Below, piece by piece: positions 15,213 to 62,146 of a stretch of 64,000 nucleotides of DNA. This stretch comes from a virus, in the IMG/VR virus record IMGVR_UViG_3300035703_000077, positions 4,390 to 68,389 of that record; one strand, written 5' to 3'. The position numbers and the translations under genes were made by a program. Positions within the stretch are counted from its first letter, which is position 1. Each line of letters begins with the position of its first letter. Below the pieces are notes generated by a model that worked only from the letters and a program-made list of their open reading frames with translations, did not search any database and was not told the DNA's origin.

Positions 15213-15233
15213 ATTGTATAAATATATAAAGAT

Positions 15234-15262
15234 AAAAAAATAACCACACAAGGTGGTTATTT
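15234..15262 (-). terminator. Intrinsic terminator
   Basis: AAATAACCAC-loop-GTGGTTATTT followed by a T-run on the minus strand. Confidence 0.75.
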
Positions 15263-15721
15263 ATTATGTCTTCCCAATGAAATATCCATTTCAGATTTTG
15301 TAAATCCAATGTCTAGTTCACTTTTATACCAAAAATACAAATCTTCAACACTACCATCATTCATCACATCAACGGCACGATCCCATAAATCTGCACCAAA
15401 TTCTTTATGCAATGCTTTGCGTAATAAATTCAAACGTCGTATTTCATCTTTATTACCCTCTTCACTCAATTTGAGTGCTTTAACTTGCTTCATTCTAGTT
15501 TTATGCCTTGCCTCATCCTGTCTATCTAAATAGTTAGATATTCTTGGATTGTTCATTTCCTCATCATATATTTTTTTTGCTAAGTCACGCTGTTCATCAG
15601 CTTCTATAAGATACGGGGATAATTCAAAATCGCCATTTCTAATACGTAGTAAAAGTGGTGATGATGCTGGTAGATTATTTTTTCTAACATTTGTATACCA
15701 GAGGAACCGATTGTATGCCAT
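15257..15721 (-). CDS. Hypothetical protein
   Basis: 154-aa co-oriented ORF, no recognised motif. Confidence 0.65.
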   Translation of the reverse strand: MAYNRFLWYTNVRKNNLPASSPLLLRIRNGDFELSPYLIEADEQRDLAKKIYDEEMNNPRISNYLDRQDEARHKTRMKQVKALKLSEEGNKDEIRRLNLLRKALHKEFGADLWDRAVDVMNDGSVEDLYFWYKSELDIGFTKSEMDISLGRHNK

Positions 15722-15733
15722 ATTTTCATTTTT

Positions 15734-16492
15734 TTAGTTATTATATTGGTTCATTAAAGTGGTAATTTCATCTTCTGTTAAATATGGATATGGATTATGA
15801 TACCCCAACGATCCCAGATTGTATTTAGATTCAACTGAAAACAACCTAGCATATTCAATGGATGCATATTTGCCAATATTATATTTTATCATTCGTAATG
15901 AAAAAAATAGGTCTTCTGCAAAAAAAGATGCGGTTGACGCATTACCCAAATCTATTAGTTCATTTAAGTCCGTGTTCCAATTATGAAATCTACAAATATA
16001 TTCCATTGTTCTTGGATTTCGCAATGATAGACCACCATTTAATATGGCATATTCATTTACGTAAGAATTACAAGGTGCCCCAATATAATCCCAATCGTAA
16101 AATGACTCTATGCCATTACGTAATATACCACTATCCATTTGAAAAGTCAATACTCTATAAAATTTATTAAAAGTTTTCCAAAAATCAGTTGATGTCATTA
16201 ATAAGCAATAATTTAGTATCTCTTTCATTTTACTATTATTCATCAATTCATCAAAACCATTCAATTTGAAAAATAAAGATGGTATTGGTATTGCCTGATT
16301 GTAAATACCAATTGTTACATTATTAGTATATCCAAACTTTTTTAATTGAGATTTATATGGTCTAACCAAATCATTTTGGGTATATACATACAATTTTGTA
16401 TCTTTTGGTAGATATTTTAAATGATCGTGGCATACCTTACCAAAATTGTCAAATTCTCTATTTTCAACTATAACAGCTGCTAATTGTTGCAT
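15734..16492 (-). CDS. DUF5672-like glycosyltransferase (GT-A-like)
   Basis: LTFQMDS, WDYIGAP, NGGLSLR, AEDLFF, FSVE, G.H motifs; start uncertain (16492 or 16528). Confidence 0.7.
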   Translation of the reverse strand: MQQLAAVIVENREFDNFGKVCHDHLKYLPKDTKLYVYTQNDLVRPYKSQLKKFGYTNNVTIGIYNQAIPIPSLFFKLNGFDELMNNSKMKEILNYCLLMTSTDFWKTFNKFYRVLTFQMDSGILRNGIESFYDWDYIGAPCNSYVNEYAILNGGLSLRNPRTMEYICRFHNWNTDLNELIDLGNASTASFFAEDLFFSLRMIKYNIGKYASIEYARLFSVESKYNLGSLGYHNPYPYLTEDEITTLMNQYNN

Positions 16493-17184
16493 ATTAAACT
16501 TTCCCAATTTACCATAGGTGATAGCCATTTAGTCTCCCCGTGGGTTGATGTTGCAGGTATTGATGAAACTAATGTTCTACCTCTTTGTGAAAGTTCTAAA
16601 AACATATTAAAATCATTTGGGTGGTTTCCGGTTGTCCATTTACGTAGTATTACCTCATCTCTTTTTAATGTAGATGCCATTGCCGCAAACGTCATTGTAG
16701 TTGAATTTGTGATTTTATAATGAGATAATTTACCACAATAAACTCTACTCACTTCAGACTTTCCTTCACAAAACGGGTTTCCACCTTGACTTGGATTTAA
16801 GTATTTATCAGGATGATCGTATCCAGTAACATAATCAAATCCCATTGAAATGCCGTCCGCTATAACAGATTCAGCATTTGGTGTATGCACGTAATCATTT
16901 TCTAATAAATAAACAATTTCATCATTTGACTCTCTAATTGCGTAATCAAGCGCTATATTAAATGATTTTGCAGATGAGTTTGCATTTACATTTATGTAAG
17001 TAGCACGATTATCTGTTACGTTGTATATCATATCTATTGTTTGACTAGAGGCGTCATCCATCAATATAATAAATTGAGAATTTATAAATGTAGTCCAAGC
17101 ATTTCTTAAACAATTTTCATTGTTAATCCAAGATGGCTTATCTTTTTTATAACCAGTGTCTGATATTCTATAAATTACTTTCAT
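16480..17184 (-). CDS. GT-A fold glycosyltransferase
   Basis: IVYLLENDYVH DxD-like motif; SFNIALDYA; position within the GT cluster; likely start 17184. Confidence 0.65.
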   Translation of the reverse strand: MKVIYRISDTGYKKDKPSWINNENCLRNAWTTFINSQFIILMDDASSQTIDMIYNVTDNRATYINVNANSSAKSFNIALDYAIRESNDEIVYLLENDYVHTPNAESVIADGISMGFDYVTGYDHPDKYLNPSQGGNPFCEGKSEVSRVYCGKLSHYKITNSTTMTFAAMASTLKRDEVILRKWTTGNHPNDFNMFLELSQRGRTLVSSIPATSTHGETKWLSPMVNWESLICNN

Positions 17185-17872
17185 TTCGCCTTTCAAAATA
17201 TTTAATAAACAATGGCAATTTATCAGCGGCATAATCTACATTTGGAACTACACTATATATAATAGGTTTTATATTATATTTAGTAAATAATTGAGACCAT
17301 AACCGCTCGGTTCCCCGTTGTTCGTTTTTGTTATTTACACTTACATATTTAATTTCTTCTATTTTAAACAAATCTTCTTTTGTTATTCCAAATATAGGTC
17401 CAAAAATGCCAAATACATAAGGTTCTAGTTTATTTATAGTAATTATACTATTACACCAATTAAATTGCTCATCATTGTCGAAGTATGAAACTCCAATACC
17501 ATAAAACCCACACCACACAAATGGCTGATTATTTGATACACTCTTAAATACTATATCATATGTCTTATCAGACCTAGCAATTAAATTATCGTGTTGAAAA
17601 AAGTATTTATTAAAATTAAAATCGTTTTCAATTATCGTTTTAATTGAGCTGAAATCAAACATTTTATATTTAGATTCAATATAAGTAAAATTTAATTTTT
17701 CACATAATTTTTTAGTTTGAAATATAAATTCGTAATCAGTTGAACCAGTATCTACAACAATTACATTTTGATTTGGGTTATTATTATTTATCAACTTTAA
17801 ATTATCGTGTAAATATTTTATGCCATTGTTAGTAGATATTACAACAGAAGTATCAGAATTTTTCAATCTCAT
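17168..17872 (-). CDS. GT2-like glycosyltransferase
   Basis: SVVIST...VIVVDTGSTD GT2 N-terminus; FFQHDN. Confidence 0.65.
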   Translation of the reverse strand: MRLKNSDTSVVISTNNGIKYLHDNLKLINNNNPNQNVIVVDTGSTDYEFIFQTKKLCEKLNFTYIESKYKMFDFSSIKTIIENDFNFNKYFFQHDNLIARSDKTYDIVFKSVSNNQPFVWCGFYGIGVSYFDNDEQFNWCNSIITINKLEPYVFGIFGPIFGITKEDLFKIEEIKYVSVNNKNEQRGTERLWSQLFTKYNIKPIIYSVVPNVDYAADKLPLFIKYFERRNESNL

Positions 17873-18749
17873 CTAAAACCCCTTTTACATCAAACATTTC
17901 TTCCATTGATGTGTATGGACATTCGTGATATAACCCACCTAATTGAAAATCAAAATACATTGAGTCAGGTAATTTTGTTCGCTCTGGTGGTGGATTTGCA
18001 ACTATATTATTATGCAAGTCGTATCCAAAAACATTAGGTTTTGTGCCAATCCAAATAACATTTGATGTCAATTTAAATGCAGCTGCTGCGTGCTGTAAGC
18101 ACGAATCAATCAATACACGTTTTGCAGATACTAATAACAATGAAAATAATTCAAAGTTTGATAGCGGTTTAAATATTGGCTCAACCGATGGATGTTGTAT
18201 AGCTTGTTGTTCTGCTTTGCAAACTTGCATAATATGGTATTGATTTCCAAATCTATTTACAATCTCGGACGATAATGTAATCGGCATATCACGAGACCAA
18301 CTATAAATTGGTTGCCCGTCTGCAATAGGTCCACCATTGGTATGCAATAGTAGAATTGGCTTCTCTCGTCTCCAAAGTGAAGAAAAATTCTGTTGCATCA
18401 TATTCATATGAACTTCGGGTAAAGCATTACCATCATACTCTAATCCATAAATTTCGTGCCAGGTTTTTAGTAGCGAATCTTTTTGATTAATGTGCCCGCT
18501 TTCAAAATAAGGCTCTCTACGTAGAAATATAGTATCGGAGTTTTTAATATACTCTTCCCAAAAATAAGGAGCAAAACCTATTTTATAAACCCGATAAACG
18601 TGTGGGTTATTTAAAAATACCTCTGGCCACGCAGTCATTACAACTAGTTTTCTATCTTTATATTTTTTTTTAATTGCAGGCAGAATAGCAGTTGATGCGA
18701 CAATTTTACCTAAACCACCTTCTGCGTGAAATACTACATATTTTTCCAT
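17853..18749 (-). CDS. GT9 (heptosyltransferase)-like GT-B enzyme
   Basis: GGLGK N-terminal motif; EVFLNNPHV; IDSCLQHAAAA. Confidence 0.7.
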   Translation of the reverse strand: MEKYVVFHAEGGLGKIVASTAILPAIKKKYKDRKLVVMTAWPEVFLNNPHVYRVYKIGFAPYFWEEYIKNSDTIFLRREPYFESGHINQKDSLLKTWHEIYGLEYDGNALPEVHMNMMQQNFSSLWRREKPILLLHTNGGPIADGQPIYSWSRDMPITLSSEIVNRFGNQYHIMQVCKAEQQAIQHPSVEPIFKPLSNFELFSLLLVSAKRVLIDSCLQHAAAAFKLTSNVIWIGTKPNVFGYDLHNNIVANPPPERTKLPDSMYFDFQLGGLYHECPYTSMEEMFDVKGVLDEIEKF

Positions 18750-18772
18750 TTTTTATTTTTTATTTATGTTTT

Positions 18773-18801
18773 AATATAATAAAATTATTTGAAATTTTCA
18801 A
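18773..18801 (-). promoter_or_regulatory. Sigma70-type promoter TTGAAA-N17-TATATT
   Basis: -35 at 18796-18801, -10 at 18773-18778, 17-nt spacer; matches three other copies. Confidence 0.55.
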
Positions 18802-19876
18802 ATTCTTTTTTTGATCTGTGTAAAGATGATCCTATTACTTGGTGCATATCATAGTACTTATAATCTGCTAATCTACCACCAAATATGAAATTTGTTTCAT
18901 TATTCATCAAATATTTATACTTATTGTATTTTTGATTATTGGTTTGATTATTTATAGGATAGTAAGGTTCACCATTTAAAGTTGGATATTCTTTTGTTAT
19001 AATTGTATGCGATTGATTACCAAATTCAAAATGTTTGTGTTCAATTATACGTGTATATGGTATTTCATATTCGGTATAGTTTATACCAGCAGTTCCTTGA
19101 AAATCCATAATATCTAATGTTTCAGTTTTAAAGTCCAAACTTCTATAATCTAACTTTCCAAATTTGTAATCATAAAATCTATCAATTGGACCTGTATATA
19201 CTATTTTATTTGCAATACTATCAAAATAATCTCTATTTGAAAAATAATCTTGATTTAATCTAACCTCAATTCCATCTAAAAGTTTTTCAAATATTTGAGT
19301 ATATCCGCCTATTGGTATTCCTTCATATCTATCAAAATAATAACTATCATCAAAATTGAATCTAATTGGTATTCGTTTTATTATAGATGTTGGTAATTCC
19401 TTTGGGTCACATCCCCATTGCTTTTTGGTATATCCCCTTATAAAAATGTTATAAAGATCTTCGCCAATATTAGATAAACACCAATCTTCTAAATTTGTAG
19501 GTTTTTCAATGTGAATTTTATTGTCATCAAATAGTTTAATAGCGTCACTTGGAGTTTTGACATCATAAATTTGATACAATGTTAGTAAATTAATTGGAAA
19601 TGAATAAATATTACCTTTGTAATTTACCTTAGGTCTATACTTGAAATTATTAAATTCAACTAAGCAATTGACGTATTCCCAAATTTCTTTATTGGATGTG
19701 TGAAATATATGAGGACCATATTTATGAACGTTAATACCCTCTACGTTTTCTGTATAACAATTTCCACCTATATGTGACCTTTTATCAATCACTAAAACGG
19801 ATTTTCCGTAGTTTTTCATTTCCCGTGCAAATACGGAACCAAATAAACCACTACCAACAATTAAATAATCATACAT
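18785..19876 (-). CDS. glf: UDP-galactopyranose mutase
   Basis: GSGLFG FAD motif, HIGGNCY, HKYGPHIFHT, YTKKQWG, EPYYP, GRLADYKYYDMHQ. Confidence 0.95.
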   Translation of the reverse strand: MYDYLIVGSGLFGSVFAREMKNYGKSVLVIDKRSHIGGNCYTENVEGINVHKYGPHIFHTSNKEIWEYVNCLVEFNNFKYRPKVNYKGNIYSFPINLLTLYQIYDVKTPSDAIKLFDDNKIHIEKPTNLEDWCLSNIGEDLYNIFIRGYTKKQWGCDPKELPTSIIKRIPIRFNFDDSYYFDRYEGIPIGGYTQIFEKLLDGIEVRLNQDYFSNRDYFDSIANKIVYTGPIDRFYDYKFGKLDYRSLDFKTETLDIMDFQGTAGINYTEYEIPYTRIIEHKHFEFGNQSHTIITKEYPTLNGEPYYPINNQTNNQKYNKYKYLMNNETNFIFGGRLADYKYYDMHQVIGSSLHRSKKEFENFK

Positions 19877-19877
19877 T

Positions 19878-21062
19878 TTAGTTTGTTAATACATTAATAA
19901 AATTTAACCACATTTTACCAACTCTGTCTATATTAAAATTGCTTAAAATATAATCAGTTCCTCTATTTCTAATATTTTGTTTTAATGTTGGGTTTGCTTC
20001 TAAATAATAAATTGCATCTAGTATATTATTTATATTGTTTTTAAATTTACCATCAGGATCTTTAGTTAATTTCTCACGCTGTATATCATCTACATTTACA
20101 TAACTTGGAAAGTTTATCCAAAAACAATAGTCACGGAAATATTCAGGTAGGGCACCCAATTGATATGTTATAGGTATTGCACCCAATGCGATTGCTTCAG
20201 CAACTACACACGAGAATGTATCTTTGTGGACATCTTGATATGGTGTATATAGCGGATATAAAAAGTATTCGCTTTCGGCAATATGAGAAAATAGTGTATG
20301 CTTATCAACCCCATTATGTGAGTTAAAGAAATGATCAGTATGTTGATGTGTGGCTAATAAATAATCAAATGAGTGAAATTCTAAATCAGGATAATTTAAA
20401 TGACGCAACGCTTCAACTGCCACATCACCACCACGTGCCCAAGCTGCGTGGAAAACAAATTTATGTGGTTTTTTCTTTATATTTTTTGCTAAAACTTTAT
20501 TAATCATCTCATCCATAACAGGATTTGGTATTAATGTAGAAAATACTTTACTTTGGTATGAATTTTTGGCACTTTCTATTGTAGATTGGTTCATATTCTG
20601 CTCCCAATTTGAAATATTGACAAACCCAAGGGTTAAATTATTTTCTTTAGAATAATTTATTAATTCCCCAATTCCGTATATCCATTGCATATGACACCAA
20701 TAAATAAGTGACTTTTTGACTTTAATTGGTAATTTATCATAATGGTGAAACCATAATGAACTAACTAAAATATCAAACTCTAAATCATTAATATTCTCAA
20801 AATCTGTAAATGTGTATGTAACTCCATTTACTTTTGTACCTGGTACAAAATCTATACCACTATTTTTATAGTCCTGTTCTAATTGTGGTTCTAATCTATC
20901 AAATGCAAAAACAACATCGTGTCCTTGTTTTGCCAAATATTCAGCAACCAAAATGGAACTACCATCAGTACCTGATCCTCCACCATTACCATATCTAATA
21001 GTGTCACCTGTTAAATAATTACTTCTTCTACTATTTCCTATTACAATAAAAGCTATTCTCAT
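19878..21062 (-). CDS. GT4-like (GT-B) glycosyltransferase
   Basis: GGSGT N-terminal loop, EYLAKQGHDV, DTFSCVVAEAIALGAIPI. Confidence 0.8.
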   Translation of the reverse strand: MRIAFIVIGNSRRSNYLTGDTIRYGNGGGSGTDGSSILVAEYLAKQGHDVVFAFDRLEPQLEQDYKNSGIDFVPGTKVNGVTYTFTDFENINDLEFDILVSSLWFHHYDKLPIKVKKSLIYWCHMQWIYGIGELINYSKENNLTLGFVNISNWEQNMNQSTIESAKNSYQSKVFSTLIPNPVMDEMINKVLAKNIKKKPHKFVFHAAWARGGDVAVEALRHLNYPDLEFHSFDYLLATHQHTDHFFNSHNGVDKHTLFSHIAESEYFLYPLYTPYQDVHKDTFSCVVAEAIALGAIPITYQLGALPEYFRDYCFWINFPSYVNVDDIQREKLTKDPDGKFKNNINNILDAIYYLEANPTLKQNIRNRGTDYILSNFNIDRVGKMWLNFINVLTN

Positions 21063-21064
21063 AT

Positions 21065-22318
21065 TTATAGTATTTTTTCATAGGGTTCGCTCCAACCAAG
21101 TTTTTCATCATACAAATACATTAAAATTTTGTATGGTTCTTGTTGACTAGAAAATCTAGCCAAATAATAATTTTCAATCAAATTAACTTGGTTTGGGTCA
21201 GTATTTATATTAAAATCTTTTCTATACAACTCTACATCATTTTTTGATAAAACACCCAAGGTTAAAAATTGTTTATTTTTAAAATCCAATTTAGAAAAAA
21301 ATCCTAAATCCCACGTAATTCCAATTTCGTGTTTTTTTGATATAAAACCACTTTCCCAATCTCCTGTATATGGTGGTTCATTTACTTTTAAAGTATAATC
21401 GTGTATTCTACATTTTTTGAAATCAAATCCACCATAAACTTCATAATCACGCAATGTTCTAACATCACCAAGACCATAAATCCCCATATCTATACCATTA
21501 TCTTCAGTGCCAAATAATTGTCTAGTTTTTTTACGGGCAAATATGTCACGCTCCCCACTTGTTTTTTTGGTTTCACTTTGGCTTCCGTGATCTTCCCAAT
21601 GTTTTGGTCTGTAATTTCGTGTATACTCGTGCCACATTACCATTCTATACGGTGAGTACATATCCCACCCGTGTGTAAATGCACGAACTGATAAAGTGGT
21701 TTCTTCAGTATATCCACCAAAATATATATCCGGATCATACGGAACTTCTTTTATAAAATAACCCCAAGTAAAGTAAAAGTGACCACTTATAGTTCTAGCT
21801 TTTATAACACGATTTCTTTGTTTATGATCTTGAATATACCAAGGCATACTCATTAAAAGTTTGTCAGAACTAAATTCGTATTGAGACATTAAAGATGGTA
21901 TCAAATCCCACGTAGGTCTATCTTTTGTTGGGTCAAACGGAGTGCAATACGTTGTTATTATTGGTTTTGGGGATTCTTCTAATGCCTGTTTAAAATCTTC
22001 TAATACAATTTCATCCCATCCCATTACAAATCTATGGTGTGAGTCAATTTGAAGTGTATATTCCTCATCATCGTACAATGAATTGGTCACTGATCGTGCC
22101 CACCCAAGTCCTTCCGACTTTGAATAGTGATATTTAGCTATTCTAAATCGTGGGTCATTATCGTATCTATTTATATCTTCGGTCTCGTCGTATTGCCAAC
22201 AAATTCCAAATGTTAAATTTTCTGGATTCTTGGCACGCTCCAACATATCTTCTATTGTTGGTATTAATTGTGGGTCTCTATAACTTGCGATTTGTACAAA
22301 TATTTTATCTTTCTTCAT
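21065..22318 (-). CDS. GT60-like polypeptide/hydroxyproline GlcNAc transferase (Skp1 GlcNAc-T family)
   Basis: IFVQIASYRDP, LQIDSHHRF (DSH), VPYDP..YF...EE, RAFTHGWD, MWHEY. Confidence 0.82.
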   Translation of the reverse strand: MKKDKIFVQIASYRDPQLIPTIEDMLERAKNPENLTFGICWQYDETEDINRYDNDPRFRIAKYHYSKSEGLGWARSVTNSLYDDEEYTLQIDSHHRFVMGWDEIVLEDFKQALEESPKPIITTYCTPFDPTKDRPTWDLIPSLMSQYEFSSDKLLMSMPWYIQDHKQRNRVIKARTISGHFYFTWGYFIKEVPYDPDIYFGGYTEETTLSVRAFTHGWDMYSPYRMVMWHEYTRNYRPKHWEDHGSQSETKKTSGERDIFARKKTRQLFGTEDNGIDMGIYGLGDVRTLRDYEVYGGFDFKKCRIHDYTLKVNEPPYTGDWESGFISKKHEIGITWDLGFFSKLDFKNKQFLTLGVLSKNDVELYRKDFNINTDPNQVNLIENYYLARFSSQQEPYKILMYLYDEKLGWSEPYEKIL

Positions 22319-22378
22319 TATAACTTTGGTTTAGATTGTATATATAAATATATGAATTTTATTTTATACAAAAATTAT

Positions 22379-25300
22379 TTAACAGCCATAACATATTTTC
22401 CCAATTAGTTGATTTACTTGATGTGTCAAACTTTCAATTTGACATTGTTGTTGTTGAATTGCATTAGTTAAAACAGAAACAATAACAGGATAGTTTATAC
22501 CGAGTATACATCCGCCCGTAACAACTTCGGGTATAAATGGTTTAACTTGTTGTGCAATAAAACCTATATTTTTATGTTTTTCTTCATCATTTTTCATAGT
22601 GTATGTAACGGGTTTTAATTTCATAACATCACATAATCCATAACATATTCTACTAATATTTTCTTTTAATCTAATATCTGAATAATTTACCCAATTTACC
22701 CCACATCCAACATTAGCTATCCATATATTACACCCACCACATATATCACGGCACACACGTAAGCATCCACATACAAATACACTCTCACATGAAATTAAAC
22801 AATTATACGTTGTTATCGTATTTTTAGATAATATAGTTCCACATGTACAAAAATCGCCACAAGATGTTATTTTAGCACATTCATATCCAAAAAAGGGTAA
22901 TGTATGAAATGAAACACTACCACTAACAATACATACATTATTACTAAGTGTTGTAATACCATCAATATCCACACAACCACATATACAAGTATTACCACCT
23001 GAATCAACTTGAAAATCGTGCCATTGACTTACAGTAATAAATCTTGGAATTTTAAGTGTATTTGAACCTATGTCAGTTGCAAACATCGAACCATTGCAAT
23101 TCATATATATATTATTAGAATATAATTCATCACTTCGTATTTCAAATCCACCTATACACCCACACGTTGCTTGAATAATACCACATATTCTTGTATTACT
23201 ACCTAATATAATGGATCCACCTGTCGTATAACTTATTCCACAATTACCATTTAATTTAAATCCACTTGTAGTCCAAAAATTATCAGCATCTATACAAAAT
23301 GAATTTGCTGTAACATTACCACTTACGGTTGCCGACGTTGCAATAAGAGAACCATTCATACAAACTCTAAATGGTGCAGTTGAAAATGTACCAGAACCAA
23401 GATAAATGCCATTAGAATCGGCTGTGAATGAATTTGGAGCAGTTCCTATTCTAATAGTTGAGCCACAAATAGTACCACCAGATATATTTGGTGAACAAAT
23501 ACAAGCATTTGCTACTAGAGAGTTTGCAGTTATGTTACCACTAACAGTTAAATTAGTTCCATCCCACAATAAGCAATTAGATGCAGATTTAAGAGATAAT
23601 TTTGGTGTATTCGCATCATAACCTATAAAAATGCCATTAGTATTATATGCAGTTGCCAACATCCTAATTTTTGGATTGCAATATGTTGGAAAATTTGCAT
23701 CTATTGCTATTATATTTAAACTACCAGAAGTACCCACATTTATAGTTCTGTTTGCGTAAACATCTTGTGCAAATAATATATCAGTTGCTACTGATTGTAG
23801 GGTACAACCAAATGACCTCCAATTAGTATTAGTTCCAGATGGTGCACACCAAAAGAATCCGCAACACCCATCTAGTGATGTGTTATTAGTTTGCCAATAA
23901 CAAGAGCTATATGATACAACATCACGTCTTATGCAATTGTGAAAGAATAATTTACTATTATCCCAATCACCTTGATAAAATACACCAGTACCATCACCAT
24001 CTGTACCAGATCTAACTTTATTAAGTGTAATGTTGTCGTTAATTACACGCAACGTACCTTCAGAATCACAAACAGAAGCAGTCACATTTAATACTATACT
24101 TGGTACATTGGTAGCTAAACACGCTGCACCAAAATTTATAGTTCCCAGTGTGGGATTGTAAGTTGGAGCCACACTCAATGATTGTGAGGTTGAAGTTAGT
24201 GATACTAATGTTAAAGGTTTTGCAGATCCTGTATAAAATTCATTTGCAACTACTGTAACTGTACTGAAATTTTCTATCTGCACACAACTAGCATTTGCGG
24301 AGACCGATTGTGCTTTTGGATTTGACAATAATGAAACTTGAGGTGCGTTTATTCTTGATTTTGCATAATAAACAACTCTTTCTGTTGTAGTCAATATCCC
24401 ATTTGGATCTCGGTAATCAATATTTATATTTAATGTCGCATTTTCAGTTGAAATTGAACTTATACCATACACATTAGTGGTAGGTACCGCTTGTAATGGT
24501 GTTGCTCCAGAACCAGTTACAGTATATCTAAATTTACCATTTGATAAATTTGATACATCTGCCACATATTCAAAATCAACCAAATCGTTTCCACTATATA
24601 CAATAACAGAACCTGTTGATGTGGTAATACCACTTTGAACCACACCAATAGAATTTGCAGGTAATACAAAGTTTGAATTTGATACTGTTATAACTAATGG
24701 GGGTGCCGCATCTGTTAATCTAAATATTGTAGTGGAACTTGTATCACCATCCACCGTAGCAGTATAGCTTATAGACGAAACCTTAACATCACTACGTGAT
24801 CCTGTAAAATTTGTAATGGATAATTCAGCGGACGTATCTGTTACATTTATTAATAAACCAGGATATTGACCACCTGCATAACTTGCAGATGTGAGTAATG
24901 CACCGTTCTCATCAAATGCAGATGATGCAAATGTAGTAGAACCAGAATATCCTTGTCTAATTAATGTTAAATTAATATCGTTTTGAACCAATGGTGATGG
25001 TTCATTTTTATAATCAAATCTAAATGCTATATTATCGGAAGTCAAACTTAATTGTTTAGCCAACCCAGCAACGTCATTCCCACCAGTAAATTGTTTAGAC
25101 CGCTCAACTAAAACGGGTATGTAGTTATTATTTATATCATAAAATTCAAACCTAAAGTCAAAAGTTTCGTTAAATAACTTTCGTGGAATTTGTTGAATAA
25201 ATGTGATCTCATCGGGTGAGAACGAAGTTTCCTGCGATGCCTTTAAACTAACATTTGCCAAAAACCAACTTGTTGGTATAGTTACAGACGAATCTAAATC

Positions 25301-26722
25301 ACCAACAACCTCAAACACCAATTTACCATCACCTGTACTAATTGGTATAAAGTTTATATTAACATCGGTTTTCGTTAAATATTCATTTGAATATTTTATA
25401 GTTCCTATCTCTTGCAAATACTCGGATGAACTTATATACGTTTTTATGTAAGACGTATCACTGCGAGAGCCACTATACAAAACTTTATAAGATAATGAAT
25501 ATTCACTATCTTTTGTAAATGTAAAATCATCTTTAGTTATTACTTTTTGAAAGCTACCACTCTGTGGGTTAAAATCTATTTGAATAGAATTTAATAAATT
25601 TGAAGAGTTTAATGATATCGGGTGATCGATGCTGCTACTTTCCCAATACGTGTCAAAATTAGTTCCATAGAAGTTACCATAATAAACTTCGGTAGCATTA
25701 CTTGCCGTATAGTCTAATAAAAATTCAGTTGCCTCTAATTTAATATCTTGAACTAATTGGAAATCTTCTAATAAACTTCTTGACTTTCTGAATACTTTAA
25801 CTCTGGCAACGTCACCAACAAAGGTTCCTAATCTGCGTAATATGAACTTACCAAATGAACTTAAAGTTGATGAATTTGTTACCGTTTCATTTTCAAAATA
25901 CTCAAATGATGATGTATATGATGCTGATACAAAATTGCTGACTACGTTAGAATTACCAACTATAGTCGTGTATGGTTTATCAACTAATAATTCTCTTTCA
26001 TTTAATACCTCAATAACACTTGCAGAATAGTCTAGAGATGGTATTGTAATTATATTGTCCTGAATGGATGATGTCCAATTTGGACCAGATGATGTGCGTA
26101 GTTTATATAAAGTTCCACCACTATACCCATCCAAAAATATACCAGCATTTGGTATTTCTGCTATACCATCCACCGAACCGCTTTGAGTTATAGTTGGAAC
26201 ATCTATATTAAAAATTGGTTTTACAATTTCGTCTATTTGAATAGTGGGTCTATAATAAAATCTAACCTTATCTTCATTTGCTAAATTTCTATTTATTTTA
26301 AAACGTCTTTTCCACTTTACATTATATTTACCACGCCACTCATCTGGAACATTTCTTTTTATACCATTTTCATCTACGTAAGTTTTTAATTCTGCTAATA
26401 TAGTTATATTGGCTTCACCTATCGGTGTATCTTCATAAACGTGAACGGAAACTACTTTAGATAAACCTTCGTAGTATTCAGGTATCCCATCACCTAATTC
26501 TATGTATACATTGTTACCATTTACATCTTTAATTTCAAGTAAAACATCCGTACTTTCTCTTAAATGATCAGTTCCCTCAATAATAAATCCGTTTTTACCA
26601 CCAGTAAAAACATCTCTAAATTCATTTACTTTTAAGTAAAATGAATTAGGGTCTATATCGTTAATAAAAGTTGAATATTTATCTAAATTTAAATTAGTTC
26701 CGTATTTCTTTATTCTAGACAT
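22379..26722 (-). CDS. Baseplate-attached tail fibre with Cys-rich distal half and peptidase-S74 intramolecular chaperone
   Basis: C-terminal SDIRLKENI...LKPVTY...IGFIAQQV...NY...LTNAIQ followed by a coiled coil; Ser/Thr/Gly-rich beta repeats. Confidence 0.85.
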   Translation of the reverse strand: MSRIKKYGTNLNLDKYSTFINDIDPNSFYLKVNEFRDVFTGGKNGFIIEGTDHLRESTDVLLEIKDVNGNNVYIELGDGIPEYYEGLSKVVSVHVYEDTPIGEANITILAELKTYVDENGIKRNVPDEWRGKYNVKWKRRFKINRNLANEDKVRFYYRPTIQIDEIVKPIFNIDVPTITQSGSVDGIAEIPNAGIFLDGYSGGTLYKLRTSSGPNWTSSIQDNIITIPSLDYSASVIEVLNERELLVDKPYTTIVGNSNVVSNFVSASYTSSFEYFENETVTNSSTLSSFGKFILRRLGTFVGDVARVKVFRKSRSLLEDFQLVQDIKLEATEFLLDYTASNATEVYYGNFYGTNFDTYWESSSIDHPISLNSSNLLNSIQIDFNPQSGSFQKVITKDDFTFTKDSEYSLSYKVLYSGSRSDTSYIKTYISSSEYLQEIGTIKYSNEYLTKTDVNINFIPISTGDGKLVFEVVGDLDSSVTIPTSWFLANVSLKASQETSFSPDEITFIQQIPRKLFNETFDFRFEFYDINNNYIPVLVERSKQFTGGNDVAGLAKQLSLTSDNIAFRFDYKNEPSPLVQNDINLTLIRQGYSGSTTFASSAFDENGALLTSASYAGGQYPGLLINVTDTSAELSITNFTGSRSDVKVSSISYTATVDGDTSSTTIFRLTDAAPPLVITVSNSNFVLPANSIGVVQSGITTSTGSVIVYSGNDLVDFEYVADVSNLSNGKFRYTVTGSGATPLQAVPTTNVYGISSISTENATLNINIDYRDPNGILTTTERVVYYAKSRINAPQVSLLSNPKAQSVSANASCVQIENFSTVTVVANEFYTGSAKPLTLVSLTSTSQSLSVAPTYNPTLGTINFGAACLATNVPSIVLNVTASVCDSEGTLRVINDNITLNKVRSGTDGDGTGVFYQGDWDNSKLFFHNCIRRDVVSYSSCYWQTNNTSLDGCCGFFWCAPSGTNTNWRSFGCTLQSVATDILFAQDVYANRTINVGTSGSLNIIAIDANFPTYCNPKIRMLATAYNTNGIFIGYDANTPKLSLKSASNCLLWDGTNLTVSGNITANSLVANACICSPNISGGTICGSTIRIGTAPNSFTADSNGIYLGSGTFSTAPFRVCMNGSLIATSATVSGNVTANSFCIDADNFWTTSGFKLNGNCGISYTTGGSIILGSNTRICGIIQATCGCIGGFEIRSDELYSNNIYMNCNGSMFATDIGSNTLKIPRFITVSQWHDFQVDSGGNTCICGCVDIDGITTLSNNVCIVSGSVSFHTLPFFGYECAKITSCGDFCTCGTILSKNTITTYNCLISCESVFVCGCLRVCRDICGGCNIWIANVGCGVNWVNYSDIRLKENISRICYGLCDVMKLKPVTYTMKNDEEKHKNIGFIAQQVKPFIPEVVTGGCILGINYPVIVSVLTNAIQQQQCQIESLTHQVNQLIGKICYGC

Positions 26723-26749
26723 ACATATAAATATACATAACCCTATAAA

Positions 26750-29700
26750 TTAAAAATTAATATAGCTAAATTCACCCTTTTTTCTTATTTCCATTATTGA
26801 GTCCACAAAATCTCGTGCGATGTCCAAGTGTGAAATTAAAATGATAAAATCAAATTGAGTTTTTAAATATGAAAACATCAAGAATATAGATTGCAAATTT
26901 TCACCATCCAAAGTCCCTAATCCCTCATCTATAATTAGAAAATTGGGTCTTGGTAGGTTGCACAAATTTATAAGTGCAATTCTAATAGCCAACCCACCAA
27001 CAAATCGCTCCATACCACTACTCATTTCTAATGGCCATTTCTGGTCAGAGTACACGATATAAGCATTAATAGTTTTACCATCCATTTCTAGTTCAATTGT
27101 AAAATCTACAATCTGTGTCAGTATATTATTTATTTCTTGCTCTATTATAGGAATTGCTTTTGATATTAGATTGTATGGAACCCCATTTCGGCTTATGCTG
27201 TCTAAATAATATTCATATAATTTTGCAGTTTGGACTAATTCTTCATATTCTAAAATGTTTTTTTCAATTGATTTTAGCTCTGCTTTTAATTCATTATTCT
27301 TTGTTTGAGCTTTTAACATTTCTTGCTGTAGTTTATCAATAGATTTGTCTTGCTCTTTTATTTTTAATGTCACCTCACCAATTTGCGTTTCTATTATAGC
27401 ATTAGATTTTATAGTATTCTCGTTTTTATAAAAATTACCGATATTTCGTTCTATTGTTTCAAGGGTGGATCCTAATGTATGTAGCAATAAATTTAATTCG
27501 CTTTTGGATTGATTTAAGTGTATTAAATTATTTTTTGCAGTATCCAATTCATTTAACAAATCATTATATTCATTCCACGTTACTTTAACATAAGATAGTT
27601 TATCAATACTATCCTCTATTGGTCTCAATTCACTCATTTTAACATCAATATGAGCTTTAATTTCTTCTATTGTTGTCTGTATAGTTTCTTTTTTGTCAAT
27701 AACAGATTTTGAATTTTTAACACATATACTGCAATCTGGGTTATATTCGTGCTCATTCAAATGAGCCATTGTATCTTCATTTGAGTTTAATTTATAAACT
27801 AATTTGTCCAATTCAGTATGCAAAGATGCGGACAATGCATTTAATTCATTTAGTTTGTTATATTCAATTTCAATAGTAGAATAGTCGGTATCCTTTTTTA
27901 GTCGCAGTTCGGTTTCTAGTTTCTCAAAATTAATTATTGATAATTCTGTTTCATTTAATTTTGTTTTAACGTCATCTGTTTCAGTTTCTTTATTTTGTTT
28001 ATCTTTTAGTAGCTTATCAATATTAAATGATTCAACATTTAGAGGAACTATCTGCTTATTTAGATCTGCAAGTTGGTCAATATTAACTTGTCTATCTAAC
28101 TTGAATGTGTCAAGTTTAGTTTGCAAGTCTGTCTGTAATTGTTTATTTTCAACCAGTTCAACATCTATGTCTTTTATCCTATCACTATAATCTATATTTT
28201 CATATCGCTCAAGCAGTGCGTTTGTTTTTTTATTATTTTCCAAAACCAAATCGTATAACTTATCAAAGACATCTATACCAATAAATTGTGATAATATGTC
28301 CTTACGCTCGCTTTGTGACTTATCAATAAATAAAGAATTGTTACCTTGCAAAGATAGTGTGGTTAAAATAAAATCATCATATTTACCAATATAATATTCT
28401 ATTTTGTCATTCGTGTCACGTCTGTGCTCACCATTTAATGATTCTACATTACCATCATACTCTCTCCAAAAATTAACATCAACTCGCACACCAGTTTTCG
28501 TTTTTTTAGCATATCGCTCCACGTAATAATCGGTATTGTTTATTTGAAAATGAAACTTACAATAGAAATTATCTCTTTGATTATTCATTATATGCTGCGC
28601 CTTAAATGCACGAGAACATTTATCAAATATACAAAATGACAGAGCATCCCACACCGATGATTTACCCTGTGCGTTTGGTGCGAACAAACCTATCAATCCT
28701 GTTGCTTTGTTAAAATGTATTTTGTTACCATCGCCATACGAAAACATATTTGAAAATTCAAATGTTTTTGGAATCCAAACAATACGATCTAAATATGACT
28801 CGTTTGAATTTAGCTTGTTATTAAATTGAACGTTTAAATCGTATATCTTATCTAGTGCATCTTGATTTAAGCCATATGAGTCTTTTAAATAGTCACCAAT
28901 CAATTTATTTTGAAAAACTACATCTCTAACATTACCTATTAGGGATGAATCTATTGATGAACTTGATTTTAGTGAATTTAGTGTATCCATTCTAGTAACA
29001 CTAACTTCAACCTCATCAAACATACTCTTCAACTCTTTTATACAAGATTGGAGCTCAATATTATTTGTATTTTGTATTTTTAATCTAAATCGTATTCGTT
29101 TAGGTAGCTTTACACCGACCTCATCATATACCCATTGTGGTATTTGACCATCTATAATATCTAATGTCAAATAACCATATTCATTATAGATGTTATGCTC
29201 TGTAAAATTTCTATTTTTAATATCCCATAATAAATACCCGTGGTTTTCTAAAAGCTCACCTTGCCCCTGTTGTAATAAACTGCCACAATACACTAATATT
29301 GGTTTATTTAATATCGCATCATATTCCTGTAAGACTTGTCTTCTGTGTATATCCCCGAACATTCCAATGTGGAACCCATCAAAAATATCAGCAGTAAATG
29401 ATTTAGAACTAACAGTATAACCAACATCCGTTTTTGATGAATAAACAGGTCCGTGAAAAAATACTATTTTATGATCACCCTCAATATCATTTCCGTGGAT
29501 CCAATTTTCTTTATTATCAAAAATTGAAAAAACTGATATAGTCAAATTACCAACGTTATATACTCCCGTATCCTTTAAGTAAAATAGATTTGAGTGATTT
29601 AGTGATTCTACAATTGGAGATAGAACATCTAGTCGTGATGGATTTAATAAGTTACAATCGTGGTTTCCGGCTATTACAAGAGTTGGTAGTCTATCAGCAC

Positions 29701-29929
29701 ACTCTTTTAAAAACCAACTAACCTCTCTTACCAATTCAGGTGTCATTTCAGTTTTTGCGTGTGCAATGTCTCCGCCAATATACAAAATACTATTTTTTGG
29801 TCTATTATCTAGATCTTGTAAAAATTTGTTAAATACTAATCTATATTCGTTATGTCTCTTTAAATTTCTTATGTGCAAATCAGCAATATGATACACATAA
29901 TCTATTGTTGTGTTATTTAATATTTTCAT
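26750..29929 (-). CDS. Fused Mre11/SbcD nuclease and Rad50/SbcC ATPase (T4 gp47+gp46 equivalent)
   Basis: HIADLH, GGD, GNHD, GDIH; Walker A APNAQGKSS, coiled coil with CSIC hook, SSGME signature, IIDEG, ISH. Confidence 0.92.
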   Translation of the reverse strand: MKILNNTTIDYVYHIADLHIRNLKRHNEYRLVFNKFLQDLDNRPKNSILYIGGDIAHAKTEMTPELVREVSWFLKECADRLPTLVIAGNHDCNLLNPSRLDVLSPIVESLNHSNLFYLKDTGVYNVGNLTISVFSIFDNKENWIHGNDIEGDHKIVFFHGPVYSSKTDVGYTVSSKSFTADIFDGFHIGMFGDIHRRQVLQEYDAILNKPILVYCGSLLQQGQGELLENHGYLLWDIKNRNFTEHNIYNEYGYLTLDIIDGQIPQWVYDEVGVKLPKRIRFRLKIQNTNNIELQSCIKELKSMFDEVEVSVTRMDTLNSLKSSSSIDSSLIGNVRDVVFQNKLIGDYLKDSYGLNQDALDKIYDLNVQFNNKLNSNESYLDRIVWIPKTFEFSNMFSYGDGNKIHFNKATGLIGLFAPNAQGKSSVWDALSFCIFDKCSRAFKAQHIMNNQRDNFYCKFHFQINNTDYYVERYAKKTKTGVRVDVNFWREYDGNVESLNGEHRRDTNDKIEYYIGKYDDFILTTLSLQGNNSLFIDKSQSERKDILSQFIGIDVFDKLYDLVLENNKKTNALLERYENIDYSDRIKDIDVELVENKQLQTDLQTKLDTFKLDRQVNIDQLADLNKQIVPLNVESFNIDKLLKDKQNKETETDDVKTKLNETELSIINFEKLETELRLKKDTDYSTIEIEYNKLNELNALSASLHTELDKLVYKLNSNEDTMAHLNEHEYNPDCSICVKNSKSVIDKKETIQTTIEEIKAHIDVKMSELRPIEDSIDKLSYVKVTWNEYNDLLNELDTAKNNLIHLNQSKSELNLLLHTLGSTLETIERNIGNFYKNENTIKSNAIIETQIGEVTLKIKEQDKSIDKLQQEMLKAQTKNNELKAELKSIEKNILEYEELVQTAKLYEYYLDSISRNGVPYNLISKAIPIIEQEINNILTQIVDFTIELEMDGKTINAYIVYSDQKWPLEMSSGMERFVGGLAIRIALINLCNLPRPNFLIIDEGLGTLDGENLQSIFLMFSYLKTQFDFIILISHLDIARDFVDSIMEIRKKGEFSYINF

Positions 29930-30864
29930 ATTCCTTTTAATTTTACACGGATCATATCATCCCATTGAGTTGCTTTTGTGCTTCTAATTATTTCTTGCGT
30001 CTTAATAAAGCCAAGGTCACTTGGGTCTTTTTCAGTTGGGATGATATTAGTAACTTGTATGCCGTTTTTAGTAAAATAATTTACATATTTATTAGCTTGG
30101 TCTTGGGCATCATTATCTAGCATTATTTTAATTTTTTTTACCTTATTCAAAAAAATAGTTTCCATCAATCGCTTTGATATAAACTTACCAAATAGCGGTA
30201 TGGCGTTTCGTCTAATAGCGATTGCATCAAATACACCTTCACATAATGTAATTTCATATTTCCAATTTATTTGATTTTCAAATCCTATGACGTTTTTGGA
30301 TATAGGTGGGTTTTTATACTTGAAATTAGTTTCATTATATGCACGTGCCATAAAATAATTTAACTGATTATCTTTATCATATGATGGTATTATAATTCTA
30401 TTTTCATATATACCATTTTCACAATATCCTATGTTATATTTGACTATAATATCATCATTTATACCCCTACTTAACAAATAACGTTTGACATAGTCAAAGT
30501 TAGGATCTATTGAAATTTTCTTTTCGTTTAGTTGTTTAAATTCATTTGGTAGTTTTAATTTAACTACCTCTTCTGTTTCAGTTTCTGTACTATTATAATA
30601 ACTAGAACCATATATGGTATTGATAGTACTTATCTTTGAATGATCGCAATTTAACTTACGCAAAAGAAACCCAATAGTATTACCTTTTGAGTTGCATACC
30701 CAACAATGAAATTTTTGACTATTTAAATTTACTTGTAGTTTCTTTTTGTGATGATGACAAAACGGGCAATGATATGCCATTTCATCATTTGGATATGTGG
30801 TGCCTACACCCAATAGAGAATCCAAAATATTAACTACTATTAACTTATCTTTGTGTGAAATCAT
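29926..30864 (-). CDS. DNA primase (Zn finger + TOPRIM)
   Basis: CPFC...CWVC zinc finger, RIIIP, CEGVFDA, LDND, KDPSDLG; likely start MISHKDK at 30864. Confidence 0.9.
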   Translation of the reverse strand: MISHKDKLIVVNILDSLLGVGTTYPNDEMAYHCPFCHHHKKKLQVNLNSQKFHCWVCNSKGNTIGFLLRKLNCDHSKISTINTIYGSSYYNSTETETEEVVKLKLPNEFKQLNEKKISIDPNFDYVKRYLLSRGINDDIIVKYNIGYCENGIYENRIIIPSYDKDNQLNYFMARAYNETNFKYKNPPISKNVIGFENQINWKYEITLCEGVFDAIAIRRNAIPLFGKFISKRLMETIFLNKVKKIKIMLDNDAQDQANKYVNYFTKNGIQVTNIIPTEKDPSDLGFIKTQEIIRSTKATQWDDMIRVKLKGI

Positions 30865-30871
30865 ACAACAC

Positions 30872-30900
30872 AATATAACATAAATTTGTTATTTTGTCAA
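30872..30900 (-). promoter_or_regulatory. Sigma70-type promoter TTGACA-N17-TATATT
   Basis: Perfect -35 at 30895-30900, -10 at 30872-30877, 17-nt spacer, directly upstream of primase. Confidence 0.75.
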
Positions 30901-31311
30901 AAAAATTGTTGTATCTTTATGATAAAACTTACCCAAAATTGTATCATTCCAATATAAATCAGGATGTTCTAAGACCTCATACTTAAACAAATATTTAGTT
31001 TCCAAATATGTGAGTTGTTTTTTACTATATGCAAATTCTAAAATGTATCTAGTAAATTCTGTTTGTTTACCTTCTTTTATCATTTGCTTAATTAGTAAGT
31101 TAGAACCATAATAATTTAACCAATCAGATTCTTTTACAATTTTTCTTTTTCTTTTATATCCTTTTAGCGGGGGTAGTGTTTTTTTGGAGTTTAATAATTT
31201 TTTACCTATGTACTTTTTACCACTATTATGTTCTAATAAATATACAAAACCAATAGCACTTTCAGGTATGTCTGAAAGTGCTTTTATTTCAAGATTATTA
31301 TAATTCCACAT
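30889..31311 (-). CDS. GIY-YIG-like nuclease
   Basis: GFVYLL...KKYIGKK...ESDWLNYYGS...E. Confidence 0.7.
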   Translation of the reverse strand: MWNYNNLEIKALSDIPESAIGFVYLLEHNSGKKYIGKKLLNSKKTLPPLKGYKRKRKIVKESDWLNYYGSNLLIKQMIKEGKQTEFTRYILEFAYSKKQLTYLETKYLFKYEVLEHPDLYWNDTILGKFYHKDTTIFLTK

Positions 31312-60634: not shown

Positions 60635-61405
60635 TTAGTTTGAAAGCGGTAACTTAATTGTAGCGTGTGATTTATAGTCCCTAAGTATAAAATCAGATGG
60701 TTTTAAACTATTTATTAAACTATCAATATCCAACGGAACTTCAGGTATAGCGTGCATCATATTAAGCAACTCTTCATTAAATTCCACTTTAGGCAACTCA
60801 AACGATTCTCTATCTAATTGCTCCTTTATTAGTTCAATATGATTACTGTATATGTGAGTATCTCCACCATTGAATATCAATTCATCAGGAACCATATTAA
60901 CATATCTACCAATAAACATAAGTAATAATCCATAGGAGGCTAAATTAAAAGGTAATCCCAATCCAACATCAGTGCTTCGCATATTGAACATTAGAGAGAT
61001 TGCTCGGTTTGGTATGTTTTCTTTATTCATTAAGTCAATAGTTGGTGGAACAAAGTGTAATCTACCAAGTGTTGTTTCATAATATCTCACGCGTTCTTCT
61101 ATACTCAACTCTCTCGTATAAACTTGAAAACTATAGTGACAAGGTGGAAGCACCATATCTGAAAGGTCATCTACTGCCCACGCATTTACAATTAACCTAC
61201 GAGAGTCCGGATTTTCTTTTAATTGTTTAATTAAATCGGATATTTGATCAACATTACCATTCCAGTTACGCCACTGTGCTCCATAAATTGGTCCTAACTT
61301 ACCCCACTTTTGGGAAAACTCATCATCGGTTTTGATTTTGTTGATAAATTCTTCTTTTGTATAAGGTCTACCACTTTCGTGTAAATCGTTTTTATTTGCT
61401 TTCAT
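60635..61405 (-). CDS. thyA: Thymidylate synthase, C-terminal part
   Basis: LGPIYGAQWR, DSRR, LPPCH, RSTDVGLGLPFN, DTHIYSNH; ATG at 61405 overlaps the endonuclease stop. Confidence 0.9.
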   Translation of the reverse strand: MKANKNDLHESGRPYTKEEFINKIKTDDEFSQKWGKLGPIYGAQWRNWNGNVDQISDLIKQLKENPDSRRLIVNAWAVDDLSDMVLPPCHYSFQVYTRELSIEERVRYYETTLGRLHFVPPTIDLMNKENIPNRAISLMFNMRSTDVGLGLPFNLASYGLLLMFIGRYVNMVPDELIFNGGDTHIYSNHIELIKEQLDRESFELPKVEFNEELLNMMHAIPEVPLDIDSLINSLKPSDFILRDYKSHATIKLPLSN

Positions 61406-62108
61406 TTTGTATGTTTTTATATTTCCATTTATACCCAAATGCCGTTTTATTTCTTCCTGTGAGACAGTGTCTTATGGTACCGACATTTATATTTAACTCA
61501 TTAGCAGCATCAATTGCTGATTTAAATTCACAAATTATATCACCAACGAGGTTGAGCTGGTAGATAGGTTTTTTATTTCGTTCATGTATCTTGTCTAAAA
61601 ACGAATAATCCGTTTTCCTATTTTTAATGGATTCTCGCCAACTGTCCCAATCTGTATTTTGCTTTGCTTTCTTAGATCTATCTTTAAAATCCACTTTGCT
61701 AATTCTTTCTCTCAATACCTTCTTTCGTTCTTCTTCAGTTGCAGTTTCTAACCACAAATTAAGGTGTTTACTGCGAGAAGGGTCGTGTCTTCTAGCGTCT
61801 GAATAATCTATAAATTTTGAGGTATCCCCACCATCTCCCCCTTCTTCTATCAGATTAGCCCACTCCTTAGATTCAACTATATTATACAGTTTGCTTAATT
61901 GTATTCCCATCTCTATTAACTTTTGAATATCAGTTGTTTCAAGAACAATTTCGGTTTTAATATCACAACTTTGTAAGTTATGTTTTTTTATATGACGTTT
62001 CCAAATCTTACCACTTCCAGAGTATAAATGAGGGTCTTTAGTTGTTTTACCAAGATACTTTAAACCCAAAGGACTCGTTTTGATGTATAAAAAATATTTT
62101 GTTTCCAT
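61392..62108 (-). mobile_element. Free-standing GIY-YIG homing endonuclease with NUMOD1/IENR1 tail, inserted in thyA
   Basis: FLYIK...KYLGKT...YSGSG; ANL; C-terminal KPIYQLNLVG...FKSAIDAANEL...TAFGYKWKY. Confidence 0.85.
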
Positions 62109-62120
62109 ATTTGTTTTTAA

Positions 62121-62128
62121 TATAAATA
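62121..62128 (-). promoter_or_regulatory. TATTTATA putative late promoter of the endonuclease (representative of about 18 copies)
   Basis: Same octamer lies just upstream of many structural-gene starts. Confidence 0.55.
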
Positions 62129-62146
62129 TGGTGATTTGTATAAAAA

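Follow-up and report, generated by a model that had tools for sequence, protein, structure and literature searches.

We analysed a 64,000-nucleotide stretch of viral DNA (hereafter, the window; positions 4,390 to 68,389 of the IMG/VR record IMGVR_UViG_3300035703_000077), with a focus on the gene of a long tail fibre whose distal half is rich in cysteine. The fibre is that of an uncultured aquatic T4-like myovirus. The window, with a G+C content of ~30%, encodes a gp20-type portal, a large terminase, a prohead protease, gp25, and baseplate-J homologues, and by portal protein the closest cultured phages are the Flavobacterium phages vB_FspM_immuto (54%) and the Microcystis phage Mel-JY01 (50%). 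Since these are the nearest portal relatives, oxic water is a plausible habitat. The gene order SbcCD-like nuclease, primase, then fibre is kept in 69 of 70 related IMG/VR loci, and across its N-terminal ~900 aa the fibre is 40–50% identical to the fibres at the equivalent position in 69 of the 70. The gene and its parts are as follows:

22379..26722, minus strand: long tail-fibre gene, 1447 aa plus stop codon (open reading frame [ORF]; PHROG tail-fibre families match the C-terminus, residues 1335–1441)
24287..26722, minus strand: proximal part, residues 1–812, Cys-free; conserved attachment and shaft part (alignment A1)
22682..24286, minus strand: distal mature part, residues 813–1347, 37 Cys (6.9%), aligned with Thr, Ser, Ala, and Gly of Cys-poor homologues
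23801..23980, minus strand: small beta domain, residues ~915–974 (GVFYQGDW...RRDVV...YWQT...W), 6 Cys; predicted local distance difference test score (pLDDT) of 87–94 in AlphaFold2 (AF2)
22682..22879, minus strand: tip, residues 1282–1347, 11 hexapeptide rows (C-G/N-x-I/L/V-x-x), 12 Cys (18%); predicted triple beta-helix
22382..22681, minus strand: Peptidase_S74 intramolecular chaperone, residues 1348–1447, 6 Cys (Pfam PF13884)

The fibre contains 43 Cys in total, encoded by 36 TGT and 7 TGC codons. An earlier reading of the sequence (the original prediction) had described a sharp switch from a Cys-free first 812 residues to about 43 Cys in the last 635, and our recount matched it exactly: none in residues 1–812 and 43 (6.8%) in residues 813–1447, the first being residue 813 itself. 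Coordinates 22379–24286 thereby correspond precisely to residues 813–1447 plus the stop codon. The strings quoted at the time (TCICGCVD, SCGDFCTCG, CLISCESVFVCGCLRVCRDICGGC, and the C-terminal KICYGC) are all present in the translation, and the Cys-richness indeed extends into the chaperone. Under an even spread, the confinement of all 43 Cys to the last 635 residues would have a p-value of 4e-16. As a background, 107 of 18,687 residues (0.57%) are Cys in the 48 other ORFs of the window taken as genes—drawn from a list of 61 ORFs after removal of 11 plus-strand shadow ORFs and one nested ORF—with the large structural proteins ranging from 0.1 to 0.4%. Phage structural proteins, tail fibres included, are usually almost devoid of Cys. 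Within the distal half, Cys density climbs toward the chaperone junction, from 3.3% (residues 813–904) through 5.2% (905–1039), 5.8% (1040–1229), and 7.7% (1230–1281) to 18.2% in the tip (1282–1347), and stands at 6.0% in the chaperone (1348–1447). Across the fibre there are six CxC, two CxxC, and six CxxxC motifs, most of them in the last 110 residues of the mature part; His makes up 0.6% of the protein.

The chaperone was recognised by a PF13884 match at residues 1348–1401 (47.8 bits against a cut-off of 22). Apart from S74, no Pfam family was found in the fibre at E up to 0.1, no metal-binding family was among the matches, and the Hexapep profile (left-handed beta-helix hexapeptide) did not match, so that the six-residue period described below is a resemblance only. 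The cleavage motif SDIRLK (S1348-D-I-R-L-K1353) aligns with 47 other chaperone tails, its S, D, R, and K being invariant in alignment A3, and the chaperone is presumed to cleave itself off at S1348. AF2 modelled it with a pLDDT above 90, and the tail fibre of PDB entry 8jov matches the S74 part at E 1.2e-5, the rest of the distal half being without a PDB sequence match. Further upstream, the AF2 monomer of residues 905–1225 (mean pLDDT 74.8) had no Foldseek match in the PDB at E up to 0.001 and yielded weak rows only, to lambda, Mu, T4 gp34, and T5 fibres. The small beta domain within this model (pLDDT 87–94 at model residues 11–70) carries a motif common to many fibres (alignment A2) and has a fold that faintly resembles the chitin-binding domain of chitinase B (E 0.7). 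Searching the ESM Atlas with residues 1205–1347 gave S74 clusters only (best score 0.85) and no lead, and past residue ~1275 no homologues were found, which makes the last ~70 mature residues an orphan. In five relatives (L018, L027, L034, L036, and L061), the fibre at this genome position is 3300–3570 aa long, over twice the 1447 aa of the one studied here.

What does Cys replace? The original prediction had proposed that Cys sits where Ser and Thr are usual, and alignment to Cys-poor homologues supports this: in the BLAST comparison, the Cys columns were filled chiefly by Thr (199) and Ser (162), then by Ala (134) and Gly (111), and less often by Val (59) and Ile (57), with 192 gaps. Individual replacements can be followed in alignment A2, in which CIRRDVV of this fibre stands against TRRDVV of its homologues, SNCLLWDG against TNSLLWDG, GTICGSTIRIG against GALSGGTISIG, FRVCMNG against FRVTPAG, and ATCGCIGGFEI against ATGGSIGGWTI. 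Likewise, TCICGC aligns with VSISGN, and FQVDSGGNTCICGC faces FQVDSSGNVSISGN in a homologue, the latter being a weak local match (E 1.0). Ser and Thr are themselves not depleted in the Cys-rich half.

Three trivial or mutational explanations were ruled out. A genetic-code or frame artefact would not fit, because the Peptidase_S74 match and the homologue alignments share the reading frame of the fibre ORF, and because TGY must encode ordinary Cys in this phage, whose primase carries a canonical CxxC...CxxC zinc ribbon. Mutational bias was dismissed on the composition of four-fold degenerate third positions, which is alike in both halves (A 0.41 and T 0.41 in the proximal, A 0.43 and T 0.43 in the distal half); the enrichment thus acts on amino acids. 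Finally, the distal part is not the target of a diversity-generating retroelement: none of the 46 window proteins scanned has a reverse transcriptase domain, and as to a template repeat, no repeat of the distal region of at least 30 nt was found within positions 15000–30000, except for a 31-nt internal pair. This pair is an imperfect direct repeat (window 22386–22416 and 22638–22668) with a 12-nt exact core that encodes ICYG both times, as part of RICYGLC at the start of the chaperone and of KICYGC at the C-terminus; it may be a small duplication or chance.

The tip is where the Cys are most regular. All 12 of its Cys fall within the 59 residues 1282–1340. When the sequence is arranged in lines of six starting at residue 1276, Cys occupies column 1 in 6 of the 12 lines (1282, 1288, 1294, 1312, 1318, and 1324), Gly or Asn is frequent in column 2, and column 4 takes aliphatic or aromatic residues (I, F, I, I, L, V, L, I, I). 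The tip Cys are not randomly placed, 11 of the 12 lying in odd hexad columns (one-sided binomial p 0.003). In the clade of P0001, Cys residues are flanked by hydrophobic residues at ±1, with few at ±2, as expected of a non-core phase; the clade of P0025 is without this hydrophobic ±1 phase.

Structure prediction pointed to a trimeric arrangement. In the AF2 monomer of residues 1230–1447, the tip had a pLDDT below 50 and the chaperone above 90, whereas a three-copy prediction of the same residues (alignment A3) scored 0.92, compared with 0.00 for the best of three controls. Three trimer runs agreed in at least 97% of contacts with a partner pLDDT of at least 90, and by these models the tip appears to fold in silico only as a trimer. 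Among proteins of known structure, 20 of 30 that are pairs of one chain and 1 of 23 single chains attained the mark used for this score; these counts calibrate the trimer model only roughly, since it relied on a custom alignment and three copies. The S74 part is similar to trimers of known structure, which the predictor may simply have learned; the tip is without such a solved counterpart. Residues 1287–1361 form a continuous interface in the trimer model, the surest contacts being interchain ones from residue i to i+6 along column 4 (I1297–I1303, I1303–L1309, V1315–L1321, L1321–I1327, and I1327–I1333), with further interchain contacts across columns 4 and 6. Read from this contact list rather than from coordinates, residues 1282–1347 are predicted to form a triple beta-helix with one hexapeptide per chain per layer. 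Columns 4 and 6 would make up its core, the Cys columns would be non-core, and successive Cys rungs would come from different chains. Thiols of different chains are predicted neighbours because the model sets successive hexapeptides of different chains side by side.

The original prediction had envisaged a Cys ladder serving inter-chain disulfides or metal binding in a trimer, and had proposed predicting the trimer to locate the Cys. The geometrical half of this idea gained support from the six-residue period, the column-1 Cys, and the interchain hexapeptides of the contact model, with most tip Cys placed outside the core; as to the chemical half, the thiols may form disulfides, bind metal, or do neither. 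Hexapeptide-repeat beta-helices and the T4 gp5-type triple beta-helix likewise combine a short period with an aliphatic core column and triangular stacked strands. The present tip differs from them in that Pfam finds no hexapeptide match, the helix is predicted to be built jointly by three chains, and Cys fills a column that usually holds small polar residues. At the level of the whole protein, S74 tail fibres and tailspikes such as the K1F endosialidase and T5 pb1 share the C-terminal SDxRxK domain, a long trimeric beta fibre, and modular distal parts, and by the model the fibre studied here probably forms a homotrimer, too. However, the known members and nearly all relatives found are almost Cys-free, whereas in this fibre Cys makes up 6.9% of the distal mature part and 6% of the chaperone.

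To place the trait among related fibres, we drew on several sets of relatives, which overlap and are not independent samples. A Cys-rich distal part was found in 9 of 55 matches from a search of 5.8 billion proteins (P0001–P0003, P0025, P0029–P0032, and P0046) and in 4 of the 150 best representatives of a 1.84-billion library (P0001, P0002, P0058, and P0154), the query being included in both counts. None of 70 IMG/VR fibres of the window's own lineage is Cys-rich (the 51 complete ones have at most 6 Cys each), and two of 56 second-lineage IMG/VR fibres are: L078 with 20 and L081 with 34 Cys. Over 194 collected proteins, the maximum number of Cys in any 200-aa span was two-peaked, with 0–2 in 156 proteins and at least 8 in 11. 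In cultured phages (50,697 records), tblastn with the distal 635 aa matched 231 records, all through the S74 part only and none covering 80% of the query. A full-text literature search, with most subscription journals outside its reach, found no tail fibre of comparable Cys density.

The Cys-rich state has nonetheless recurred. On a FastTree phylogeny of the proximal 560 residues (129 distinct rows, 12 of them Cys-rich; proteins shorter than 1100 aa, those lacking GGKN[GA]F close to their N-terminus, and duplicate N-termini left out), it requires at least five changes. The Cys-rich distal parts fall into three module types, those of P0001, P0025, and P0154. Members of the P0025 type share 49–76% identity in their distal parts and, by their proximal parts, belong to three sub-clades, a distribution that suggests exchange of this module by recombination. 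L078 and P0029 combine a Cys-rich distal part with a Cys-poor chaperone. The number of Cys is held among P0001, P0002, P0003, and P0058 (43, 54, 50, and 37, respectively, the last being a 607-aa fragment) at 38–61% distal identity, and Cys positions change as fast as Ser or Thr. Since density is kept while single positions turn over, selection seems to act on the number of Cys and not on which positions they occupy, and this turnover speaks against structural disulfides or metal ligands at fixed sites. The trait itself is genuine, under selection, and rare.

What might the thiols do? We tentatively favour a reading in which they oxidise after lysis into inter-chain staples; it may well be correct, though we stop short of calling it probable. 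It is the best supported reading because disulfide-dependent tails exist (in phages Pam3 and Milano), the habitat is likely oxic, and a stacked lattice would explain drifting positions. Chaperones of the S74 family trimerise, start folding from the C-terminal end, and then cut themselves off. In this fibre, selection would have swapped non-core Ser, Thr, Ala, and Gly for Cys in otherwise ordinary modules (the 535 residues before the chaperone), most densely beside the chaperone junction, where an 11-row triple beta-helix would carry Cys ladders with rungs from different chains. In the cytoplasm, where the fibre folds, the thiols would remain reduced. Once lysis has released the fibre into oxic water, thiols lying close together—those of ladder neighbours roughly one strand apart as well as CxC pairs—would be converted to disulfides, many of them interchain, and these would lock the tip covalently once the chaperone is gone. 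Because a symmetric three-fold stacked lattice would offer nearly any new Cys a partner, exact positions could drift while the number would matter. Both the oxidation and its benefit we infer.

Disulfides in phage tails are not without precedent. In Agrobacterium phage Milano, disulfides cross-link the tail, and among them are symmetric Cys24/Cys26 bonds that join the three chains of the tailspike (PMC10811340). Interchain disulfides in a trimeric receptor-binding protein with a CxC motif, observed there and proposed here, unite the two cases; the Milano bonds, however, involve few, conserved Cys at N-terminal attachment ends, the baseplate, and the sheath (PMC10811340). In our phage, by contrast, the Cys are many, distal, and poorly conserved, and the other structural proteins are Cys-poor (0.1–0.4%). 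Cyanophage Pam3 is, like our phage, an aquatic myovirus, and disulfides matter for its fibres: these are disulfide-bonded to the baseplate and released by dithiothreitol (PMC9942802). There, a single Cys per fibre chain links to Cys-rich wedge loops, and no Cys-rich shaft or tip is described (PMC9942802).

Several points weigh against post-lysis stapling. The chaperone is also raised in Cys (6 in 100 residues), which a benefit outside the cell cannot explain because the chaperone is expected to leave the virion. Classical structural disulfides usually occupy the best-conserved positions of a protein; here, pairwise retention within the Cys-rich clades is 31–89% for single Cys as against 40–76% for non-Cys residues, and far higher for Gly and Trp. 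The Cys count of the mature part is odd (37), and in-register neighbours on parallel strands do not offer ideal disulfide geometry. The ladder geometry is itself a prediction from residue contacts. Even spacing of Cys was favoured in P0001 (17 observed, 10.5 expected) but not in P0002, and local-shuffle signals are weak per protein. In addition, none of the 46 window proteins scanned, within a 68-kb piece of the genome, has a thiol oxidase, DsbA, or thioredoxin domain.

Rather than bonding with each other, the thiols could hold metal, with symmetric Cys triads and CxC, CxxC, and CxxxC clusters binding Zn, Fe, or Cu along or around the three-fold axis and so stiffening the tip. Metal ions do occur on the axis of phage fibres and spikes, and the T4 fibres gp37 and gp12 contain His-bound iron and zinc. 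The 12 Cys of residues 1282–1340, the many such motifs near the mature end, and a trimer model that would gather three copies of each would all suit metal-thiolate sites, and binding in the cytoplasm would also fit the chaperone Cys. Against this, ligand positions should be strongly conserved, which these Cys are not, His is scarce, most tip Cys would lie off the axis in non-core columns by hexad phase, and Pfam matched no metal-binding family; metal loading is therefore, in our estimate, rather unlikely. The Cys might instead aid folding, through transient interchain bonds near the chaperone that hold the register while the beta-helix zips, leaving the mature fibre reduced. The rise of Cys density to the chaperone junction (3.3 to 18.2%) and its continuation into the chaperone would agree with such a role, but we deem it unlikely: a few Cys suffice in the P22 tailspike—which has a handful of them, no native-state disulfides, and no S74 domain—compared with 43 over 635 residues here, the 51 complete relatives of the same lineage manage with at most 6 each, and the chaperones of L078 and P0029 are Cys-poor despite a Cys-rich distal part. 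The precedent would be the 'cysteine annulus' of P22, C-terminal Cys beside a triple beta-helix that reportedly react only in folding intermediates and are linked to auto-chaperone function (PMC3357383). As predicted for the present tip, they adjoin a triple beta-helix at that end of a trimeric adhesin, the C-terminal one, where folding nucleates.

An absence of function, with Ser-to-Cys changes merely tolerated and drifting up, would be in keeping with a Cys turnover like that of Ser and Thr and with the single base that separates the codons (TCT or AGT to TGT). Drift should, however, have produced the ~0.2–0.6% of the rest of the phage and not 6–7%, and it sits poorly with the two-peaked distribution among relatives, a density that survived 40–60% divergence and arose in three module types, unbiased synonymous sites, and periodic tip Cys; we give it a small chance. 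Smaller still, in our view, is the chance that exposed tip thiols form mixed disulfides or metal bridges with the host envelope and thereby aid adsorption. The non-core phase of the Cys, their peak density at the very tip of the mature fibre, and the keeping of number rather than positions would all be compatible with host contact; free thiols, on the other hand, would not last in oxic water, the chaperone Cys would be left unexplained, our literature search turned up no precedent, and we know of none. More speculatively, the Cys ladders could be a chemical device, an exposed thiol lattice that is oxidised, reduced, or metal-loaded by its surroundings and either switches the fibre between locked storage and adsorption-competent forms or bonds the host envelope. 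Such a redox- or metal-gated adhesin, evolved at least three times in aquatic T4-like phages, strikes us as improbable.

A further alternative, S-linked modification, concerns the genes next to the fibre. A sugar island begins 60 bp past the fibre gene:

15257..22318, minus strand: sugar island directly downstream, encoding an N-acetylglucosamine (GlcNAc)-type glycosyltransferase (GT), a GT1-like protein, UDP-galactopyranose mutase (Glf), a GT9-like protein, GT2, DUF5672, and others (Pfam and PHROGs)

Seven of its eight genes have no tblastn match in 70 related loci, and on that account region 15257–22318 is hypervariable, as far as sequence matches tell. Its UDP-galactopyranose mutase points to a supply of galactofuranose. 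The original prediction had included S-linked modification of the receptor-binding tip, which could take the form of S-glycosylation by the downstream glycosyltransferases or of thioether cross-links made by enzymes encoded elsewhere. The closeness of the island, the glycosyltransferases directly downstream of the other Cys-rich fibres L078 and L081, and the replacement of Ser and Thr—the usual O-glycosylation targets—by Cys would fit this idea. We surveyed loci in which a complete fibre of 1000 aa or more is followed by at least 5 kb of sequence, namely 63 Cys-poor loci plus L078, L081, and the window, for plus-strand ORFs of at least 100 aa within 8 kb; these formed 61 clusters, of which 54 representatives were scanned against Pfam, the other seven being window genes scanned already. 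Glycosyltransferases were present in 56 of 63 Cys-poor and in all three Cys-rich loci, and radical SAM genes in 20 of 63 Cys-poor and none of the three Cys-rich loci. No maturase of the kind that acts on ribosomally synthesised and post-translationally modified peptides (radical SAM/SPASM, LanC) was found in the window, nor within 8–10 kb downstream in L078 and L081. Because glycosyltransferases also follow Cys-poor fibres, we rejected the island as a Cys-specific partner: sugar or modification islands behind the fibre gene characterise the phage group as a whole, not the Cys-rich state. The neighbourhood thus adds no support to S-linked modification, which we hold to be very unlikely.

Post-lysis stapling remains the reading we prefer, and the trait matters beyond it. 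A lineage that keeps 6–7% Cys in the host-recognising half of its fibre, with recurrence in unrelated modules, points to an undescribed chemistry of the adsorption organ, be it covalent self-stapling, loading with metal, or redox control. Should the staples prove real, they would provide a natural design rule for sturdier engineered receptor-binding proteins, and next to Pam3 and Milano, the two disulfide-dependent phage tails known so far, the fibre would be a case of a third kind. The S74 chaperone usually lets such fibres fold in E. coli.

The survey of downstream genes brought further observations. The radical SAM genes of the 20 loci, some with SPASM (for example, L070:21890-23356, L066:19294-21291, and those of L001 and L123), often lie beside 2OG-Fe(II) oxygenases, methyltransferases, and GT7-type transferases, and a general island for modifying the virion or the host seems to be a feature of this phage group. 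Directly after the Cys-rich fibre of L078, positions 15100-15792 encode a 230-aa protein composed of a 75-aa N-terminal piece with 5 Cys, a run of 11 Gly, and a Hint/intein-like domain that starts with Cys; it may be a self-cleaving small Cys peptide.

Elsewhere in the window, a 1572-aa structural protein (45273–49991, minus strand) contains BACON domains, which occur in relatives as well and hint at either carbohydrate binding or a host of Bacteroidota type. Next to the primase gene lies a gene for a SegE-like GIY-YIG endonuclease (30889–31311, minus strand). The thymidylate synthase gene (60635–62467, minus strand) is split into pieces of 106 aa (62147–62467) and 267 aa (60635–61438), with a NUMOD1/I-HmuI-like endonuclease ORF (61392–62108) in between. 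This looks like an intron or homing-endonuclease insertion; neither a group I intron at this gene nor any Rfam family over the window reached the gathering score. Lastly, a 1491-aa protein (10776–15251, minus strand) has an N-terminal cytidylyltransferase-like domain and is kept between the fibre island and the terminase in several relatives.

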